Shown: positions 48,954-58,117, counted from the first letter of the stretch. The stretch: 64,000 bases of DNA from Anaeromyxobacteraceae bacterium (GCA_047602405.1 JASGHJ010000002.1:608001-672000), one strand, 5' to 3'. Numbers and translations: made by a program. The notes: generated by a model from the letters alone, not told the origin.

Positions 48954-49014
48954 CGGCGCAGACGTCTGCGCTCGGGGCCTTGGGGGCCGGTCCTGACGGC
49001 GCAGACGTCTGCGC
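48954..49014. repeat. Two perfect 16-bp palindromes GCGCAGACGTCTGCGC
   Basis: Copies at 48956-48971 and 48999-49014. Confidence 0.85.
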
Positions 49015-49019
49015 ACGGC

Positions 49020-49460
49020 TCACTTCGCCTTGGGCTTGCGCTCCCAGAGGACGTTCACGATCACCCAGCGCCCGTCGAACTTCGCGAGGTGCAGGTAGTC
49101 GATCCAGTCGGAGGCGACGACCTTCACGCTCGCGGCGTTCTCGAAGCGGTCCAGGAGGGTGACGTCCTTCTGTCGCCGCTCGGCTGGCGTGTCCTTCCCG
49201 CCGCCGCGGCGGACGCTGGCGACGAGCTTCGAGGCGCCCATCTGCTCGACCCGGCTCGCGCCGTCCTCGGTGACCACGATGCGCTTCGCGAGCTCGGGAT
49301 GCACCGCGCGCGCCATTCGCGCGGGGTCCGCCTCGTACCAGCCCTCGATGTAGTCGAGCGCCGCGCGCCGGATGGCCTCGGCCTCCGGGTCGGCCTCGGC
49401 CCGTGCGGGCAGGGCGGCGGTGGCGAGCGCGAGGGCGAGCAGTGCGGGGAGGGGGCGCAT
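49020..49460 (-). CDS. NTF2-like (lumazine-binding type) exported protein
   Basis: AALDYIEGWYEAD, HPELAKR, DYLHLAKFDGRWVIVNVLW. Confidence 0.85.
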   Translation of the reverse strand: MRPLPALLALALATAALPARAEADPEAEAIRRAALDYIEGWYEADPARMARAVHPELAKRIVVTEDGASRVEQMGASKLVASVRRGGGKDTPAERRQKDVTLLDRFENAASVKVVASDWIDYLHLAKFDGRWVIVNVLWERKPKAK

Positions 49461-49523
49461 GGGGACTCCGGGCGGGGGTTCTCGGAGGGAGGCGGGCCGG
49501 GTCCGGGCGTGACCGCGGGACCC

Positions 49524-49669
49524 CAGAGGTCCGCCGTTCAGAGGTCCGCCGTTCGGCCGCCCCCGTCCGTCCCTCTCCCCCCGCCCGTCCCTCTCCACCC
49601 CGGGTCCGTCCCTCTCCCTCCGTCCGTCCCGAGCGTAGCCCCCGCGCAGCGGGGGCGGAGACGAGGGAC
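49524..49669 (+). repeat. Short tandem repeats followed by a REP-like element
   Basis: CAGAGGTCCGCCGTT x2, CCGTCCCTCTCC x3, then GTCCCGAGCGTAG-CCCCCGC gca GCGGGGG-CGGAGACGAGGGAC. Confidence 0.8.
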
Positions 49670-49725
49670 AGGGGCCCGGGGGCTCAGATTCCTCCCTGAG
49701 CCCCAGCCGGATCCTGCGATTTCAC

Positions 49726-49747
49726 TGTCAGACCGGGGTGGCAGGAT
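49726..49747 (+). promoter_or_regulatory. Putative PafBC/RecA-NDp-like promoter
   Basis: TGTCAG-N10-CAGGAT, 7 nt before ATG 49755. Confidence 0.5.
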
Positions 49748-49754
49748 CGCGGGC

Positions 49755-51578
49755 ATGGACGCGTGGGCGGCCAGCGAGATTCGTCGGCGGAGTGGCACCG
49801 GAGCTCGCCCCGGCGGCTGCCTCGAACGACGCCGTCTCCGCGCAGGCCGCGAGCAGCATCGCCCGCCGCGACCCGCTCGGCGACCGCTGGGACCTCCGCG
49901 CGCCGCGGTGGGATCTCCCGACCTTCACGCTGTTCGAGCTGCGCGAGCTCTGGCTGCGCGGCGACGGCGGCCTCGAGAAGTACGAACGCGCTCTCGCCCA
50001 GGGCGCTCGCATGCTGCGGGCGCTGCAGGTCAGCCGCGCCGCGGTGCTGGCCAAGTTCACGGAGGGTGACCGGCTCGCCCGGCTGGGCTTCTCGAGCCTC
50101 GGGGACTTCACCGAGAACCTCCTCGGCACCCGCCGGCGCGCCGCGCAGGTGGAGGTCCAGCTCTCGAAGGCGCTACGGGAGCGGCCGCTCCTCAGGGCCG
50201 CGGTGCACGCCGGCACGGTGAGCCCGTCGGCGGCGCTCGCGGTCCTGCCGGTCACGCCCGGAGACGACGAGGCGCGCTGGGTCGAGCGCGCGGCGGAGCT
50301 GCCGGTCCGCAGGCTCAAGCAGGAGGTGAAGCGGGCGCTGAAGGAGCGGAAGGCGCTGCCCGGGCCCGACGCCGCGGAGGAGAAGAGGGAAGAGGACGAG
50401 GCACCCTGGGTGCACCTCGACGTGCCGATCTCGGACCGGGCCAGCGAGCGGCTCCACAAGGCCCTCGCCCTCGCCGGCGAGCTCGTCGAGAGCCCGCACC
50501 GGTTCGTCCAGCTCGAGGCGCTCGGGCAGGAGTTCCTCTCCGAGCACCCGGGGGACGAGTGGGACGTGAAGGGCGCCGAGCTCGCCCTCGATCGAACGCT
50601 GCATCCCCTCGACGTCCCGACGAAGCGGAACGCCGCGGAGGCGAAGCTCGAGTCGGAGACCTCCTCCTGGGAGTTCCTCGACCCGGTCGTCCCGGTCCCG
50701 GCCGTCGAGCTCGACCCGCTCGACGCCGCGACGGACGACGACCTGTACGGCACGGCGCTCGGCCTCTCCCTGGAGATCAAGAGCTGGGAAGACCTCATCG
50801 GCTTCTGCTCGGCGGTCGTGAAGGGCGCCCGGCTCCACAAGGAGGCCGGCTTCGTCGACTTCCGTCACTACGCGACCGAGCGGCTCGGCGTCCCGGCCCG
50901 CACCATCGAGACCCGCGCCGCGCTCGAGAAGCACCTCTGGGAGAAGCCCGAGCTCAAGGTCGCCAAGGAGATGGGCCTCAGCTACTCGAAGCTGCTCCTG
51001 AGGTCCCGCAGGACCAGATCCTGGAATTCGCGAAGCGGGCCGAGACCCTGACGGTGGTCGAGCTCAAGGAGGCCGTCCAGGCGCGGACGGACGCGCACAT
51101 GTCTGCGTCGAAGCGATTCCGGGTGTGGGTCCCCCGCCGGGTCGCCTTGCTGCTCCACCAGGCGTTCCTGGCCTCCTTGGCGCTTCCGGTTCCGCCGGAG
51201 GAGGCGCAGACACCGCAATCCTGCACCCTGGACGGCGCCTTTCTCGGGAAGCTCGCGGACCACTTCATCGCGGTCTGGGGCGGCGACGTGATGGAGCCGA
51301 AGACCGTGTCCCAGAAGCAGCGCGCGAAGTACCCGCGCTGCTGCTTCCCGGGCTGCAGCCGCCGCAGCGACCACGGCCACCACATCGAGTTCCGCAGCCA
51401 CGGCGGCTCGGAGGACGCCTGGAACCGCATGCCGCTCTGCGCCTTCCACCACCACGTCGTCGTCCACGGCGGCCACGCCACCATCACCGGCATCTTCCCC
51501 GACGCCGTCGAGTTCCGCGTGAACGGCGTCGTCTGGAAGGACGGGCAGTTCGGCCGAACGCGCGCGGAGCGGGTGTGA
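49755..51578 (+). CDS. DUF222-like HNH endonuclease, frameshifts near 49780 and 51000
   Basis: Two repeated units (LARLGFSSLGDFTENLLG, HKEAGFVDFRHYATERLG). C-terminal CCFPGC...HHIEFRSHGG...NRMPLCAFHH is in frame 50559. Confidence 0.8.
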
Positions 51579-51588
51579 GCCTCGCCTC

Positions 51589-52776
51589 CTACCCTCCGTG
51601 CACCTTCACCCTCGCCGCGACGGCCTGCGCCTGCGCGACGAGCGCCTTCGGGTCCGTCCCGACCGGTGCGTTCACGAGCGCGACGCCCATCCGGCGGTAG
51701 GGCCGCGTCGTCGGCTTCCCGAAGATGCGGACGTCCACGCCCGTCCCCGCGGCGCCCGGCACGGGCGCGAGCGCCTCCTCGAGCCCGCTCACCTCGGGCA
51801 CGCCCTCCTTCGACGCGAGGATGACGGCGCTCGCCCCCGCCCGCAGCAGCTCCGGCTCCGGGATCGGCAGGCCCAGCACGGCGCGCGCGTGCAGCTCGAA
51901 CTCCGAGAGCGGCAGCGTCCCGGCGAGCGTCACCATCCCGGTGTCGTGCGGGCGGGGCGAGAGCTCGGAGAAGGTGACGCCGTCCTTCTCGGAGAGGAAG
52001 AACTCGACGCCCCAGAGCCCGGCGCCGCCGAGCGCGGCGGTGACCGCGCCCGCCATCCGCCGCGCCTCCGCGAGGTGCGCCGCGCTCATCGCGTGCGGCT
52101 GCCAGGACTCCTGGTAGTCGCCGCGCTCCTGCCGGTGGCCGATGGGCGGGCAGAAGAGCGTGGGGCGGCCGTGCTGCTGCGTCACCGTGAGGAGCGTGAT
52201 CTCCGAATCGAAGTGGACGAAGGCCTCGACGATGACCTCGCGCAGGTCCCCGCGCGTGCCGCTCATCGCGTAGCTCCAGGCCTTCTCGACGCCGGCCTCG
52301 TCCCGCACGACGGACTGGCCCTTCCCGGACGAGCTCATGAGCGGCTTCACCACGCAGGGGAGGCCGACCTCCTTCACCGCGGCGCGGAACGCCTCGAGCG
52401 TCGAGGCGTAGGCGTAGGGCGCGGTCTTGAGGCCGAGCTCCTTCGCCGCGAGGTCGCGGATGGCCTTGCGGTTCATCGTGAAGTTCGCGGCGCGCGCGCT
52501 CGGCACGACCTGGATGCCCTGCCGCTCGTGGGCGTGGAGCCGCTCGGTCCGGATGGCCTCGATCTCGGGCACGATGAGGTCCGGCCGGTGCTTCGCGACG
52601 ACGGCGTCGAGCGCGTCCCCGTCGAGCATGTTCACGACCTCGCGCCCGTGCGCGACCTGCATCGCCGGGGCGTCGTCGTAGGAGTCCACCGCGATGACGC
52701 GCTGCCCGAGCCGCTGGCAGGCGATGACGAACTCCTTGCCGAGCTCGCCGGAGCCGAGGAGCAGGATGGTCTTCAT
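51589..52776 (-). CDS. purT: Formate-dependent phosphoribosylglycinamide formyltransferase
   Basis: [54 protein letters not shown]. Confidence 0.96.
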
Positions 52777-52838
52777 GGGGGGCGTACGCTACCGGAGGGC
52801 GCCGGCCCCGGCCAGCCGGAACCGAGGGGGCGACCCCG

Positions 52839-55512
52839 TCACTGCCAGCGATCGAGGCGTCGGGCCCGGGGCGTGAAAGTCGCCGAGAACGCCCGCGCCC
52901 GCGCCCGGAGGAGGAGCTGGCGGCCTTCGGCCGTGCGGGTCGGGTGCAGCCGCCCAGTCCCGATCCGGCGTCGGAACGCCTCGAGGAGCAGCCTCGCCGT
53001 CTCCTCGCGGGCGCCGAGCACGGCCGGGACCGCGTGGAAGTCGCTCCGGGCGCCGACGAGCGGGAGGTCGCCCTCGCGCTCCAGGAGGAAGCGCGGGTTC
53101 TCGATCTGGCCAAGGAGCTCGTCGAGGCAGTCGGCGTACACCGAGGAGTCGCGGTAGGACGCCCCGGCGAGGCTGACCGCGAACTCGCCGGGGGCGACCT
53201 CGTTCACCCGGAGCGCGCCATCCCCGACCTCGTGGAGGACGCCCGCCTCGACGAGCGCGTCCCGGAGCGCCAGGGCCAGCTCCCGGACGCTCCCGTCGAC
53301 CGGGAGGTGCCGGGCGAGACCGACCGCCGCCCGCGCGAGGGCGGGGAGCGAGAAGGCGAGCCCGATGGCGCAGGCACCGCCCAGAAAGAGGAGCGTGGTC
53401 CTCAGGTCCGCCCCCTGGGGCGCGCTCCGCATCACGAGCGACCAGCCCGCGCCGAAGGCGGTGGCCGCGGTGGCGAGGAGGTAGGTGAGCGTGTTCCGGA
53501 AGAAGCGGCGACGGAAGCGGGGCGGGTCGAGAGGCTCCACCGCGGGCAGCACGCGCCCGAAGTGTCCCTCGCCGACGGCCCGCCGCCAGCGAGCGCGGAC
53601 GTCATCGAGCCTCCGGAGCCGAAGCGCCGAGGTCTCGTCGACCGCGGCGATCCAGCCCGCCCCGGGCGGAGGCAGCCGCAGCCTCGCGAGGCCGCTCTCG
53701 AGCACGGGCTCCTCCGCGTCGAGCCCGACGAAGGAGTCGAAGCGCCGCGAGAGGTCGTCGAGGTCGTGCCAGCCGGCGCGGGCGCGGGGCGCGATTGCCA
53801 CGAGGTGCCAGATGCTCGCGACCTTGTCGGGTGAGGCCGCGTGGTGACGGATGGCCCGGCCGCGGAGTTGGTTGGTGAGCACGAACGACCCCGCGTAGGT
53901 GGCGAGCACCAGCGAGTTCACCGCGGGCGCGTCCCAGCCCTCGCCGAGCAGCGCGCGGGTCCCGACGAGCACCCGCAGGGCGCCGTCCTCGAGCGCGAGT
54001 GTGAGCGGGTGCACCGCCGCGCTCCCCGGGGCGGAGAGCCGTACGAAGCCCTCCGGCAGGTCTCCACCGGTGACCCACTCCGACGCGGCGGAGCCGAGGA
54101 GCGGCAGGAGGGCGCGGTGGACCACCGTGAGACGGCCCGTCACGAGGGCCAGGTACGGGTGCTCCTCGGGCGACACGGCCGCTGCGAGCGCGCGGAAGAT
54201 CGGCCACGCGCCGAGCCGTGGCGCCGCAGCGGGTTCCTCCTCGCGGATGTGGTCGGCGAGGAAGACCTGCCGCAGCGCGGTGCCGCGTGCCGCGGCCTCG
54301 AGCGTGTGGATCCGCACGCACGCGTCGAGCTTCGAGGGCGATGCGGAGAGCTCGGCCTCGGCGGTGGCCGGGCGTTCCATGCGAAGGCTCCGGCCGTGGA
54401 GGAGCCGTTCCGCGCGCAGGCGTCGCGCGAGCGCGTCGCGGCGGGCGAGCCGCGCCGGATTGGGGGCCCAAGCCTCGCCGTGCAGGTGATGGTCGAGGAG
54501 GGCGGTCCAGGTGCGCAGATCGAGGGCGGGGACCTCGGCGGGCGCGACGCCGAGCAGCGCCAGGAGTGGGCCGTCGCCGGCGAGGACGCCGCGGGCCCGG
54601 CAGTAAGCAAGGAGGGCCACCGCCGCCTCGACGTCCTCGAGCACCTCCGCGGGGTCCGGGGCGACGAGCCAGGGGTGAACGCGCACCGCCTGGAGCAGCC
54701 CCTCGTCGCGGAGCAGCTCGGCGAAGAGGGCCCTCACACGCGCCTCGTGGCGCTCGAGACGTGCGGCCGCCTCCGCGGTGGCCTCGACCGCCCACACGAG
54801 GTCGAGGTGCGGGCAGAGCGCGCCGGAGCGCACGAGCTCGGGCGCGGAGATCTCCTCGTCGATCGGGCCGCACAGCGCCTCGTAGCGGCGCCACTCCCGT
54901 GCGGTCACGTCGTAAGGCGGCGTCGCGGTGAGCGACACCACGGTCACGTTCTCTCCGAGCGCCTCGGCGAGGGACGTGAGCGCCTTCCACCAGGCTTGCC
55001 GGAGGTGGTGCGCCTCGTCGAGCACGAGCGTCCCGACCCCGGCCGCGCGGAGCTGGGCGGCGAGCGCCTCGAGCTCCGCTCCGGTCGGGAGCTCGGGGTC
55101 ATCCCCTCCCGCGCCGGCGTCGGCTGCCTCTTCGTCTCCCGGCTCGCCGGCGGCCGCCAGGCCCGCGCCGCGGTGAAGCGCCTGGTAGGTCACCGAGGTG
55201 AGGACGCCCGGTGCGCGCAGGTCCGTCGTCGCCCACGCGGGCGGCGGGGCCCCCTCGGGCAGGAAGTCACCGAGCCGTCGGAGCCACTGGTCCCGGATGG
55301 CCGTCGTGGGCGCCAAGACGAGCGCGGGCTTCCCGATGCGGCGGAGGATTCTCGAGCCCGAGGATTGTCTTGCCGGAGCCCGGCGCGGCGACGACGTGCA
55401 CCCGCCCATCGGCGAGGTGCGCGTCGAGGGCCTCGAGAACGCGCGCCTGGTAGGGCCGCCACGCGTGCCGGAACCGCAACGTGTCGGAGATTGAGGGAGC
55501 GGACGCGAGCAT
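52839..55512 (-). CDS. SF2 DEAH helicase with C-terminal TM segments, frameshift near 55350
   Basis: WRPYQ and APGSGKT in ORF 55267..55512; DEAHH, LTATPP, LLGEGWDAP, QLRGRAIR in ORF 52839..55583. Confidence 0.85.
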
Positions 55513-55557
55513 CCTTGGGCCATCATCTCCGGGAAGGGCCCGGCCGGCCAGCGCCCA

Positions 55558-55579
55558 TGTCCGACCCGCCGTCTAGGAT
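55558..55579 (+). promoter_or_regulatory. Putative PafBC/RecA-NDp-like promoter
   Basis: TGTCCG-N10-TAGGAT, 7 nt before GTG 55587. Confidence 0.5.
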
Positions 55580-55586
55580 GCACCCC

Positions 55587-57076
55587 GTGGAAACCCTCGT
55601 CCTCGCTGGCCTCCTCGTCGTCGCCGCCCTCGTGGCCTACGTCGCCTTCGCGGTCTCCCGCAGGCCCGCGGGGAGCTCTCCGCCGAGGCCTCGGCCGAGC
55701 TCGCGGCGGCGCTGACGGCGCAGGTGACCGCCCAGGTGACCGCCGCCCTCGCCCCGCGGCTCGACGCCCTCGACCGCTCCGTCGAGCGGCTCGAGCGCGA
55801 GATGCGCGACGAGCTCGCCCGGGGGCGCGGCGAGGCGACCCGGACGGCCCAGGCGCAGCGCGAGGAGCTCCGGGAGGCGCTCGCCGAGTCGTCGCGCGCC
55901 ACCGCCGAGCGGCTCGACCGCGGCCGCGACGAGGCGGGCCAGGCCTCGAAGGCGCTCGCCGACACGGTCTCGAAGCGGCTCACCGAGACGCAGGCGCTCC
56001 TCAAGCACGAGCTCGAGGCCGCCGGCGCGCGCATCCAGCAGCTCTCGCAGTCGAACGAGAACCGGCTCGACAAGCTCCGGGTCGCGGTCGACGAGCGCCT
56101 GCAGAAGCTCCAGGCCGACAACGCCGAGAAGCTCGAGCAGATGCGCGCGACGGTCGACGAGAAGCTCCAGGGCACGCTCGAGAAGCGGCTCGGCGAGTCC
56201 TTCAAGCTCGTCTCCGAGCGGCTCGAGGCGGTGCAGCGCGGCCTCGGCGAGATGCAGACGCTCGCCACCGGCGTCGGCGACCTCAAGAAGGTGCTCTCGA
56301 ACGTGAAGGTCCGCGGCACGCTCGGCGAGGTCCAGCTCGGCGCGCTCCTCGACCAGATCCTCGCGCCCAGCCAGTACGCCGTGAACGTCGCGACGCGTGG
56401 CGAGGGCGGCGAGCGCGTCGAGTTCGCGATCCGCATGCCCGGCCAGGAGGACGGCTCGGGCGAGGTCTACCTGCCCATCGACGCGAAGTTCCCCATCGAG
56501 GACTACCAGCGGCTCGTCGACGCCTCCGAGCGCGGCGACGCCGCGGCGGTCGAGGTGGCCTCGAAGGCGCTCGAGGTCCGCGTGAAGGGCTGCGCGAAGG
56601 ACATCCACGACAAGTACCTCGGCCCGCCGCGCACCACCGAGTTCGGCATCCTCTACCTGCCGGTGGAGGGGCTCTTCGCCGAGGTCGTGCGCCGGCCCGG
56701 GCTCGTGGAGGCGCTGCAGCGGGATTTCAAGGTCCTCGTGGCCGGGCCGACCACGCTCACGGCGATCCTCTCGTCGCTGGAGATGGGCTTCCGCACGCTC
56801 GCCATCACGAAGCGCTCGAGCGAGGTCTGGAAGGTGCTCGGCGCGGTCAAGACCGAGTGGGGCAAGTTCGGGGACGTGCTGCAGAAGGTGGAGAAGAAGC
56901 TCACCGAGGCTTCGAACACCGTCGCCGAGGTCCACAAGCGCCAGCGCGTCATCGGGCGGAAGCTCCAGTCCGTCGAGGAGCTCCCCGCGGCGGGCCCCGA
57001 GCAGCCGCTCCTCTTCGCGCCGGTGGACGCGGGGGACCCGGACAAGGACGGCGACGAGTCGCGGCGGCCGGCGTAG
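55587..57076 (+). CDS. rmuC: DNA recombination protein RmuC, frameshift near 55670
   Basis: N-terminal TM segment in an upstream frame; KVRGTLGEVQL, LPIDAKFP, AGPTTL, MGFRTLAI. Confidence 0.92.
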
Positions 57077-57138
57077 GGCCCCCTCGACATGCTCGGGGTG
57101 AGCGGGGCCTGGCGTCCGGCCGTGGGCTGGGCTAACCC

Positions 57139-58117
57139 ATGCGCATGCCCAGGGCCATCAGGATCCACGAGACCGGCGGGCCGGAGGTGCTCCGGCTCGA
57201 GGACGTCCCCGTCGGCGCGCCGGGCGCGGGCGAGGTCCGCCTGCGCCACACCGCCATCGCGGTGAACTTCGTCGACACCTACCACCGCACCGGGCTCTAC
57301 CCGATGAAGCTCCCGCTCATCATGGGCGTCGAGGCGGCGGGCGTGGTCGAGGCGGTCGGGCCGGGCGTGCAGGGGCTCTCGCCGGGCGACCGGGTGGTCT
57401 ACCTCACCGCCTCGGGCGCCTACGCCGAGGTGCGGCTCGCCCCCGCCGACCGCTGCATCCGGCTCCCGGACGGCGTCTCCGACCTCACGGCCGCCGCCAC
57501 CTTCATGAAGGGGCTCACGGTCGACGCGCTCGTGCGCCGCACCCACCCGGTGAAGGCGGGCGAGACGGTCCTCGTGCACGCCGCGGCCGGCGGCGTCGGG
57601 CTCCTCATGGTGCCGTGGCTGAAGTCGCTCGGCGCGACCGTCATCGGCACCGCGGGCTCCGACGAGAAGGCGGCCACCGCCCGCGCGGCCGGGTGCGACC
57701 ACGTGATCGTGTACTCCCGGGAGCCCTTCGCACCGAAGGTGCGGGAGCTCACCGGCGGGGAGGGCGTCCCGGTCGTGTACGACGGGGTGGGGAAGGCGAC
57801 GTTCGAGGGTTCCCTCGACAGCCTCGCGCCCTTCGGCCTCCTCGTCGCCTACGGCAACGCCTCCGGGCCCGTGCCGCCCTTCGATCTCCGCACGCTCGCT
57901 GCGAAGGGGTCGCTGTTCGTCACGCGCCCGACGGTCTTCGGCTACGTCGCGAAGCGGCCCGATCTCGAGCGCGGCGCGAAGGAGCTTCTTCGACCGGCTC
58001 CTCGACGGACGCGTGAAGGTGCCGGCGCCGCGCACGTGGCCGCTCGACGGGGTGGCGGACGCACACCGCGCGCTCGAGGCGCGCGCCACGACCGGATCGG
58101 TCGTGCTCGTTCCCTGA
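57139..58117 (+). CDS. qor: NADPH:quinone oxidoreductase, frameshift near 57988
   Basis: TGGPEVL, VNFVDTYHRTGLY, HAAAGGVG, YDGVGK, KGSLFVTRP. The true end AHRALEARATTGSVVLVP* is in the shifted frame. Confidence 0.9.

Follow-up and report, generated by a model that had tools for sequence, protein, structure and literature searches.

A candidate PafBC-type DNA-damage promoter class ahead of an HNH-nuclease element and rmuC in an Anaeromyxobacteraceae genome

In a 64,000 nucleotide (nt) stretch of an Anaeromyxobacteraceae genome (GCA_047602405.1, JASGHJ010000002.1:608001-672000; hereafter the window) an HNH-nuclease gene and rmuC are preceded by closely similar bipartite sequences, and the question is what kind of promoter these sequences represent and which regulator would read them. 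The site of the HNH gene (49726-49747, + strand) reads TGTCAG-ACCGGGGTGG-CAGGAT and is followed, after 7 nt, by an ATG at 49755; that of rmuC (55558-55579, + strand) reads TGTCCG-ACCCGCCGTC-TAGGAT, again with 7 nt to the start codon, a GTG at 55587. The original prediction, made from the window alone, had described both as TGTCnG-N10-(C/T)AGGAT with a shared ACC directly after the first hexamer, and this description proved exact. Its strict pattern has two matches on the two strands of the window, which are the HNH and rmuC sites. In the HNH-element promoter the -26 element TGTCAG (49726-49731, +), whose GTC triplet is the predicted site of the PafB helix-turn-helix (HTH), stands 10 nt before a -10 element, CAGGAT (49742-49747, +), with a non-consensus first base; in the rmuC promoter the same distance separates the -26 element TGTCCG (55558-55563, +) from the -10 element TAGGAT (55574-55579, +). 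Leaderless transcripts are predicted from both. Neither a palindromic partner box nor a LexA box was seen at either site, and a consensus sigma70 scan of positions 49000-57500 found no -35/-10 promoter. Both downstream genes are frameshifted in the present assembly. From the evidence given below we regard the two sites as hybrid sigma70 promoters (GTC-containing -26 box, N10 spacer, -10 box, no -35 box) that are likely to be activated after DNA damage by the WYL-domain proteins PafB and PafC through sigma adaptation, and we put the probability of this reading at roughly 0.8.

The genome (6.16 Mb, 74% G+C, 98% complete) contains a wider class of such sites, [T/C]GTC[A/G]G-N10-TAnnnT, and this motif equals the published PafBC consensus, tGTCgg(N10)tA(N3)T (PMC8635444). 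For TGTCnG-Nx-TAnnnT the number of matches was 21 with x = 10 and 11 with x = 9, and the 11 other spacers gave 0-6 each. A matrix seeded on 16 non-redundant N10 sites of the same genome detected 76 sites scoring more than 11 bits, and 64 of these fell outside the 5200 roughly called genes. When only the two boxes were scored (at least 12 bits), the N10 spacer gave 104 matches, of which 72 were intergenic and 44 had a start codon 5-10 nt beyond the -10 box, compared with 28-54 matches (8-32 intergenic, 1-8 with a start) at ten other spacers. Because this count is partly circular, the matrix having been seeded on N10 sites, a plain matrix-free filter was added: TAnnnT stands 5-9 nt ahead of the start in 358 genes, 10 of which carry GTC[ACG]G at N10, and with a relaxed -10 box N10 occurred in 22 of 841, against 1-7 at eight other spacers. 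TTG at -35 was found in none of the 10 filtered N10 promoters and in 43 of the 348 others, which are small numbers, and in 2 of 40 matrix sites. Inspection of the 35 control-spacer sites by eye turned up an addB-like gene and a dnaE site, the latter being the same promoter as read at N10. Run genome-wide, the scan showed the motif enriched at exactly N10 before repair genes, as had been expected. The loose pattern TGTCnG-N10-nAnnnT (259 matches) was dropped as evidence: its matches mainly reflect codon periodicity, N7, N13 and N16 giving 210-235.

The 7 nt to the start codon, which had been put forward as a shared feature, is exact at both sites, but it is not specific to the motif. Across the genome TAnnnT has its maximum 6-10 nt ahead of starts (127, 66, 65, 88 and 48 cases, against about 6 elsewhere), CAGRnT peaks 7 nt before starts (17 against 0-8), and leaderless-type promoters are common, TAnnnT ending 5-9 nt before 358 of the 3450 starts with intergenic upstream DNA. 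Such -10 boxes would fit an ordinary class of sigma70 promoters, constitutively active in GC-rich myxobacteria, or chance combined with the duplication of one element; in the same direction point the strict matches, 7 of 12 of which are copies of one element, and the few targets that are housekeeping genes. The sharp N10 spacing and the concentration on repair genes argue against this explanation, as do the preservation of the rmuC site while its spacer changes and the absence of the motif from PafC-negative genomes (both described below), and we consider it highly improbable.

Target genes were identified by scanning 36 downstream proteins from 40 fetched sites (four were without a convincing frame), together with the proteins of the window and the regulators. 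The ten filtered N10 targets are xth, rnhA, radA, polA, uvrA, ruvB, ruvC, one RNase-H-like gene recognized by eye and two unknowns. Further motif-bearing genes are ssb (two copies), uvrD/pcrA, recN, recQ, recJ, an addAB-like fusion, carD, genes for PD-(D/E)XK and PolB-type exonucleases, and the gene of an ImuA-like protein that heads imuA-imuB-dnaE2. Of the genes at which the original prediction had proposed to look, uvrA, ruvB, ruvC and HNH genes carry the motif, while recA has only an imperfect site. No Pfam family was assigned to 13 of the 36 proteins. Four motif-bearing genes without a Pfam family above noise (L015:86-901, L013:96-644, L041:61-576 and L017:175-486) are candidates for new damage-response proteins; L013 and L041 have a LexA-like box as well. 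The carD (CdnL-like) gene at C2:1252664 (C1 and C2 are contigs) has a strong N10 site, so that damage may induce a general transcription factor; sites were also seen at carB and dnaE1. The ssb gene with its promoter occurs twice, inverted, near the start of a contig (C1:5296-5778 and C1:20535-21017), which is either a duplication or an assembly artefact.

Six WYL genes were found in the genome, four in two adjacent pairs and two single; all lie outside the window, in agreement with the earlier statement that the window has none. One of the pairs, at C1:2006840-2008896, consists of adjacent PafB-like and PafC-like genes of HTH-WYL-WCX architecture (HTH_PafC, E 5e-28). Its matches in the PDB are PafB and PafC only, so the adjacent pair that had been proposed as a search target exists, and its closest solved structures are those of PafB and PafC (PafBC structures: 7P5X, 9FND and 6SJ9; PMC6789036). 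The two genes are adjacent in 30 of 30 relative loci. Relatives of the PafB-like protein are 66-98% identical to it and mostly labelled Anaeromyxobacter or Anaeromyxobacteraceae, with only myxobacterial names among the named top matches of the homologue search; by these relatives the organism, predicted to be myxobacterium-like, is an Anaeromyxobacter. With residue roles taken from M. smegmatis PafB and PafC (PMC8635444), the PafB residues K5, R8, E42, A43, R46, R50, K52 and Y76 and the PafC residue D62 are kept, and S40 and R56 of PafB are replaced by Thr and Leu. All 31 aligned Myxococcota PafB proteins (the genome's own and 30 relatives chosen as best HTH_PafC matches) share R8, R46, R50, K52 and Y76. 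The WYL groove of PafB binds single-stranded DNA (ssDNA) in mycobacteria (PMC11804915); of its residues, R181, R204, R208 and R214 of PafB and R201 and R204 of PafC are kept, and in this genome Y196 of PafB is Leu and R211 is His.

HTH_PafC was found in 110 of 151 genomes across the Myxococcota, from which 18 strongly PafC-positive and 12 PafC-negative genomes were picked before their upstream regions were viewed. In the 250 nt upstream of radA, recN, ruvC and ssb (111 regions), GTC[AG]G-N10-TA was found in 36 of 71 regions of the PafC-positive genomes, spread over 15 of the 18, and the 40 regions of the PafC-negative genomes gave none. By gene, the counts in PafC-positive genomes were 10/17 for radA, 12/18 for recN, 12/18 for ssb and 2/18 for ruvC. 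The antisense control gave 0/71, and a matrix version of the comparison 24/71 against 1/40. Other spacers were seen in 0-2 regions, save N12 with nine; these were rejected as a separate class, since they are probably the same sites read through TATA.

The rmuC gene (55587-57076, +), which is damage-inducible in E. coli, encodes an N-terminal hydrophobic segment and an RmuC nuclease domain (Pfam RmuC, E 2e-74). It was found in 11 of 30 relatives, and in 9 of these 11 other genomes a matching site of at least 11.6 bits lies upstream; one genome has no site and one an in-gene match only. All nine sites have the N10 spacer and seven have TGTCCG. In the closest relative both boxes and the GTG are kept and the spacer sequence is altered; in one genome from outside the family the rmuC site is TGTCAG-N10. 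One base that the closest relative has in a C/G run near 55666 is missing from the window gene. This is possibly an assembly error, because lexA and the neighbouring helicase gene are also split.

A second explanation concerns LexA. TGTCAG could be part of a repressor operator, for instance a degenerate myxobacterial LexA box, and the sites would then be SOS-type promoters. A LexA-like box does overlap 7 of 40 non-redundant sites, compared with 8 of 5199 upstream windows, and the six copies of a TnpB-like gene carry CTGAAC-N4-TGTCAG. Moreover, a published SOS-like box lies over the -10 box of Myxococcaceae recN; in the Myxococcus-like genome G101 this box overlaps the -10 box of a perfect N10 site. 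However, 33 of the 40 sites, including both window sites, are without such a box, and the myxobacterial SOS box (CTRHAMRYBYGTTCAGS-like) is absent from both. The M. xanthus recN 'SOS box' was not bound by LexA (PMC9705874), and dinB, recX and sbcD1 were not raised in a lexA mutant (PMC12288472). A LexA operator also leaves the absence of the motif from all 40 regions of the PafC-negative genomes to be accounted for. We therefore regard this explanation as very unlikely.

The published damage data of M. xanthus bear on the same point. With mitomycin C the proteins DinB, RecX, SbcD1, PriA and ImuB go up, and they are not raised in a lexA mutant; RecJ and RecN are raised in both situations, and RuvC is not raised (PMC12288472, Table 1-2). 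The 2025 proteomics paper describes the regulators of DinB, ImuB and RecX as 'yet to be identified' and calls for further regulators; its authors, Jung et al., set MXAN_1359/1360 aside on the ground that LexA controls their level (PMC12288472). These genes (MXAN_RS06580/06585) are the M. xanthus pafBC and likely orthologous to the Anaeromyxobacter pair. Promoters were checked in four or five Myxococcaceae genomes related to, and other than, DK1622, with orthology inferred. The motif lies before dinB in 3/4, recX in 3/4, sbcD in 4/4, recJ in 5/5 and, near the start, priA in 2/4, the remaining two priA genes having weaker distal sites; it was not found before the second recX paralogues (0/4) or yebC-ruvC-ruvA (0/4) of these genomes. 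Together these observations recommend PafBC as a likely candidate where M. xanthus still lacks an assigned damage regulator. The idea is partly in print: one sentence in Sheng et al. 2021 reports a PafBC-binding sequence in 24 of 51 M. xanthus genes (PMC9705874). The text of the supplement gave no match for PafBC or TGTC, and its Fig. S3, possibly an image, may list the 24 genes. Beyond this mention, our literature search, which did not extend to subscription journals, found no definition of a PafBC motif or regulon in Myxococcota. An assignment of MXAN_1651, the 'RuvA' of M. xanthus, to HNH-RuvA_C proteins found no support, there being one RuvA_C match per genome, at ruvA.

The motif may also be real and be read by another activator, either an alternative sigma factor or a DriD-type WYL homodimer. 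In favour of this, sigma factors are numerous in myxobacteria, two of the WYL genes stand singly in the genome, outside the pairs, and many strong sites, both window sites included, read GTCnGAC, a short palindrome. Set against this, only 12 of 36 conserved sites have the A of GAC, no upstream partner box is conserved, and the second box is a sigma70-type -10 box in genome-wide use. DriD places both of its HTH domains on DNA and uses a different mechanism (PMC13004042), and the motif, identical with the PafBC consensus in print, goes along with the presence of PafC. Another activator appears quite improbable.

A variant that leaves PafBC in place concerns rmuC. The second PafBC-like pair of the genome lies at C1:232518-234.6k, and in 25 of 28 parsed copies of its PafB a Lys occupies the R46 position. 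The pair goes with a further promoter class, which is probably its own: TGTCCG-N9-TAnnnT occurs on average 5.6 times per genome with an extra PafB copy (n = 42) and 1.9 times with one copy (n = 15), two of 59 genomes having been dropped for lack of a match, and seven N9 TGTCCG sites, against one N10, were found in 30 loci around the second pair. Clusters of TGTCCG-N9-TA promoters were noticed in island-like regions (C1:102072-166203 and C2:388242-392028), one of them before an addB-like gene, and probably represent this class. At rmuC the TGTCCG box, typical of the second class, occurs together with the N10 spacer, so that the second pair might be its reader. Canonical PafBC could act at the HNH site, TGTCAG, with the second pair or a mixed dimer reading the rmuC site. 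Position 5 of the first box in the 36 conserved ssb, radA, recN and ruvC sites is A in 21, G in 15 and C in none, whereas rmuC has TGTCCG in 7 of 9 relatives. The replacement of R46 and the higher N9 counts fit as well, and rmuC lies directly upstream of the second pair in one genome (G133) and about 1 kb from it in two (G054, G117). On the other hand, all rmuC sites have N10 and not the 9-nt spacer of the second class, TGTCCG-N10 counts differ little between genomes with and without the extra copy (means 2.4 and 1.5), ruvC of the Anaeromyxobacter genome also has C at position 5, and rmuC outside the family has TGTCAG-N10. A division of the two sites between two readers is thus rather doubtful, and we mention it tentatively.

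Several observations weigh against activation of the two sites by PafBC. Among the targets are genes outside repair (carB, lolA, glyoxalase and dCMP deaminase genes). The recA gene has only TGTCGT-N10-TAGAGC with GTTCAG repeats upstream, no site was found upstream of the second recA and of lexA, nor at dinB (0/2) and priA (0/1) of the Anaeromyxobacter genome, and in Myxococcaceae uvrA is without the motif (0/5) and imuA has TGTCAG-N11-TA, not N10, in 4/4 (L285-L288). (A CTGAAC LexA-like half site overlaps two of these four; imuA of the Anaeromyxobacter genome is N10.) The ruvC site is present in only 2 of the 18 PafC-positive genomes, and three of the 18 have no site at any of the four genes. 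As the genomes are kin, the co-occurrence is one strong pattern and not 111 tests, and the PafC-negative set comes mostly from other families, with one negative genome from a positive family. Whole-genome motif counts exceeded a reversed control in 13 of 13 genomes of the own family and not in most other Myxococcota; outside the family the comparison was uninformative, probably because the control is common in coding DNA, and the gene-anchored tests were substituted for that reason. On the protein side, PafB W70, which touches sigma3/beta flap in the mycobacterial complex, where PafC D62 contacts SigA S446/R416/R442 (PMC8635444), is not kept. R211 of PafB is His in 55 of 58 parsed Myxococcota proteins and never Arg, and the Y196 position holds Y, F, T, S or L. 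In sigma70 both arginine motifs are present, and the position that appears to correspond to SigA S446 is apparently Ala. Finally, Pup ligase was not found in the 98%-complete genome by a search in which the Corynebacterium control was matched.

The HNH gene of the window (49755-51578, +) belongs to a dispersed element with 11 copies, 64-96% identical to the window copy. The promoter site lies at the same place in all 11 and reads TGTCAG or CGTCAG; being copies of one dispersed element, these sites are not independent. The copy at C2:2927628-2929472 is intact (614 amino acids (aa), 96% identical to the window copy, within a family of 600-660 aa). Measured against this copy, the window gene has gained 1 nt near 49781 and lost 7 nt near 51000, and is therefore probably a pseudogene. 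The dispersal of the element suggests that it is mobile. The original prediction had pointed to DUF222/13E12 HNH genes as targets of mycobacterial PafBC. The intact copy has no match to DUF222 (PF02720) at E up to 5; the family shows a weak C-terminal HNH match (Pfam, E 0.056) and falls in HNH clusters of Myxococcota in the Atlas, with TM 0.5-0.6 to DUF222/HNH models in predicted structure. The likeness to DUF222/HNH proteins is thus one of predicted structure only. A different motif-bearing HNH gene of the genome has a weak DUF222 match (E 0.0035). A REP-like hairpin and a second hairpin (49616-49704, fold z -2.85) lie at the 5' end of most copies of the element, and the REP-like hairpin itself (49616-49670) occurs at about 69 places in the genome. 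The motif also stands before other HNH families, six TnpB-like copies and RAYT-like genes. Three RAYT-like transposase genes were noted with motif-like promoters. The TnpB-like copies (about 645 aa) lie at C1:600318, 645844 and 1538075 and at C2:800038, 2144439 and 2703433; in each, CTGAAC-N4-TGTCAG-N10-TA is followed by the start 6 nt on, so that LexA-like and PafBC-like boxes overlap.

Between the two promoters of the window a superfamily-2 helicase gene (ResIII/DEAD matches; 52839-55530, -) is divergent from rmuC, and the short gap between them holds the motif. The helicase gene is frameshifted just 3' of the Walker A motif. The lexA gene at C2:1748978-1749672 is in two frames, one of several single-base indels that suggest assembly errors.

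The PafBC-type damage regulon of the original prediction is supported by features read from sequence: the motif, its fixed spacing and position before repair genes, the target classes, the regulator pair with its reading residues and the co-occurrence. Sigma adaptation itself and the steps that follow we infer by homology to mycobacterial PafBC. ssDNA would be bound by PafB and PafC through their WYL domains, the PafB HTH would read GTC via R46 and R50, and the PafC HTH would stand in for the -35 box on sigma region 4. Transcription by RNA polymerase would then begin some 7 nt downstream of the -10 box and give transcripts that are leaderless in most cases. At the minority of sites overlapped by LexA-like boxes (7/40) both derepression and activation would be needed. 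The HNH element carries the promoter within itself, so it would be expressed during DNA damage of the host.

A broader picture can be drawn, to which we give slightly better than even odds. PafBC would be the main damage activator across much of Myxococcota, and the regulator, independent of LexA and DdiA, that is being sought in M. xanthus. It would be proteasome-free, with a remodelled ssDNA groove, placed under LexA in Myxococcaceae (a feed-forward loop), present as two pairs with different boxes in Anaeromyxobacteraceae, and exploited by HNH and TnpB-like mobile nucleases. LexA-independent damage induction is documented in M. xanthus; to this the analysis adds a defined motif and a target list. 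Sigma adaptation by PafBC, a regulator tested so far in actinobacteria, has been demonstrated in mycobacteria and put forward as a principle of the actinobacteria (PMC8635444). If true, the proposal would carry it over, without the proteasome, to a Gram-negative sigma70 polymerase, and mobile nucleases would tie their own expression to damage of the host.

Among known systems, DriD of Caulobacter crescentus is likewise a WYL-type, ssDNA-activated regulator of an SOS-independent damage response in a Gram-negative bacterium, acting at promoters without a clear -35 box; it differs in that the DriD homodimer contacts beta and alphaCTD, not sigma4, whereas here a PafBC-type motif goes with an unequal regulator pair (PMC13004042). 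A further comparison is with the pafBC genes of M. xanthus. Many Myxococcaceae copies, at loci matching the Anaeromyxobacter pair, have the SOS box reported for M. xanthus pafBC, apart from one or two changes, in contrast to Anaeromyxobacter pafBC, which has a TTGACG-17-CAGGTT promoter and no LexA-like box. The available text of the M. xanthus papers (PMC9705874, PMC12288472) defines no myxobacterial motif, lists no targets and reports no gene test. The REP13E12/DUF222 HNH elements of M. tuberculosis, whose 13E12 genes bear the RecA-NDp promoter (PMC3381160), are, like the window family, dispersed HNH-nuclease genes with a damage-type promoter; the window family differs in having no Pfam DUF222 match, a length of 600-660 aa and a resemblance in predicted structure only, and the window copy has no LexA box. 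From mycobacterial PafBC the myxobacterial case is set apart by the Gram-negative host without a detected Pup ligase or evident proteasome link, by the changes at W70, R211 and Y196 of PafB, by recA as a weak target, by a second paralogous pair that goes with the TGTCCG-N9 class, by the SOS box of Myxococcaceae pafBC itself, and by a regulon known here from sequence. What it shares with the PafBC/RecA-NDp system of M. smegmatis and M. tuberculosis is the same bipartite motif and spacing without a -35 box, adjacent pafB and pafC genes of HTH-WYL-WCX architecture with R46/R50 and D62, and a set of targets in which repair genes are joined by HNH repeat elements (PMC3381160).

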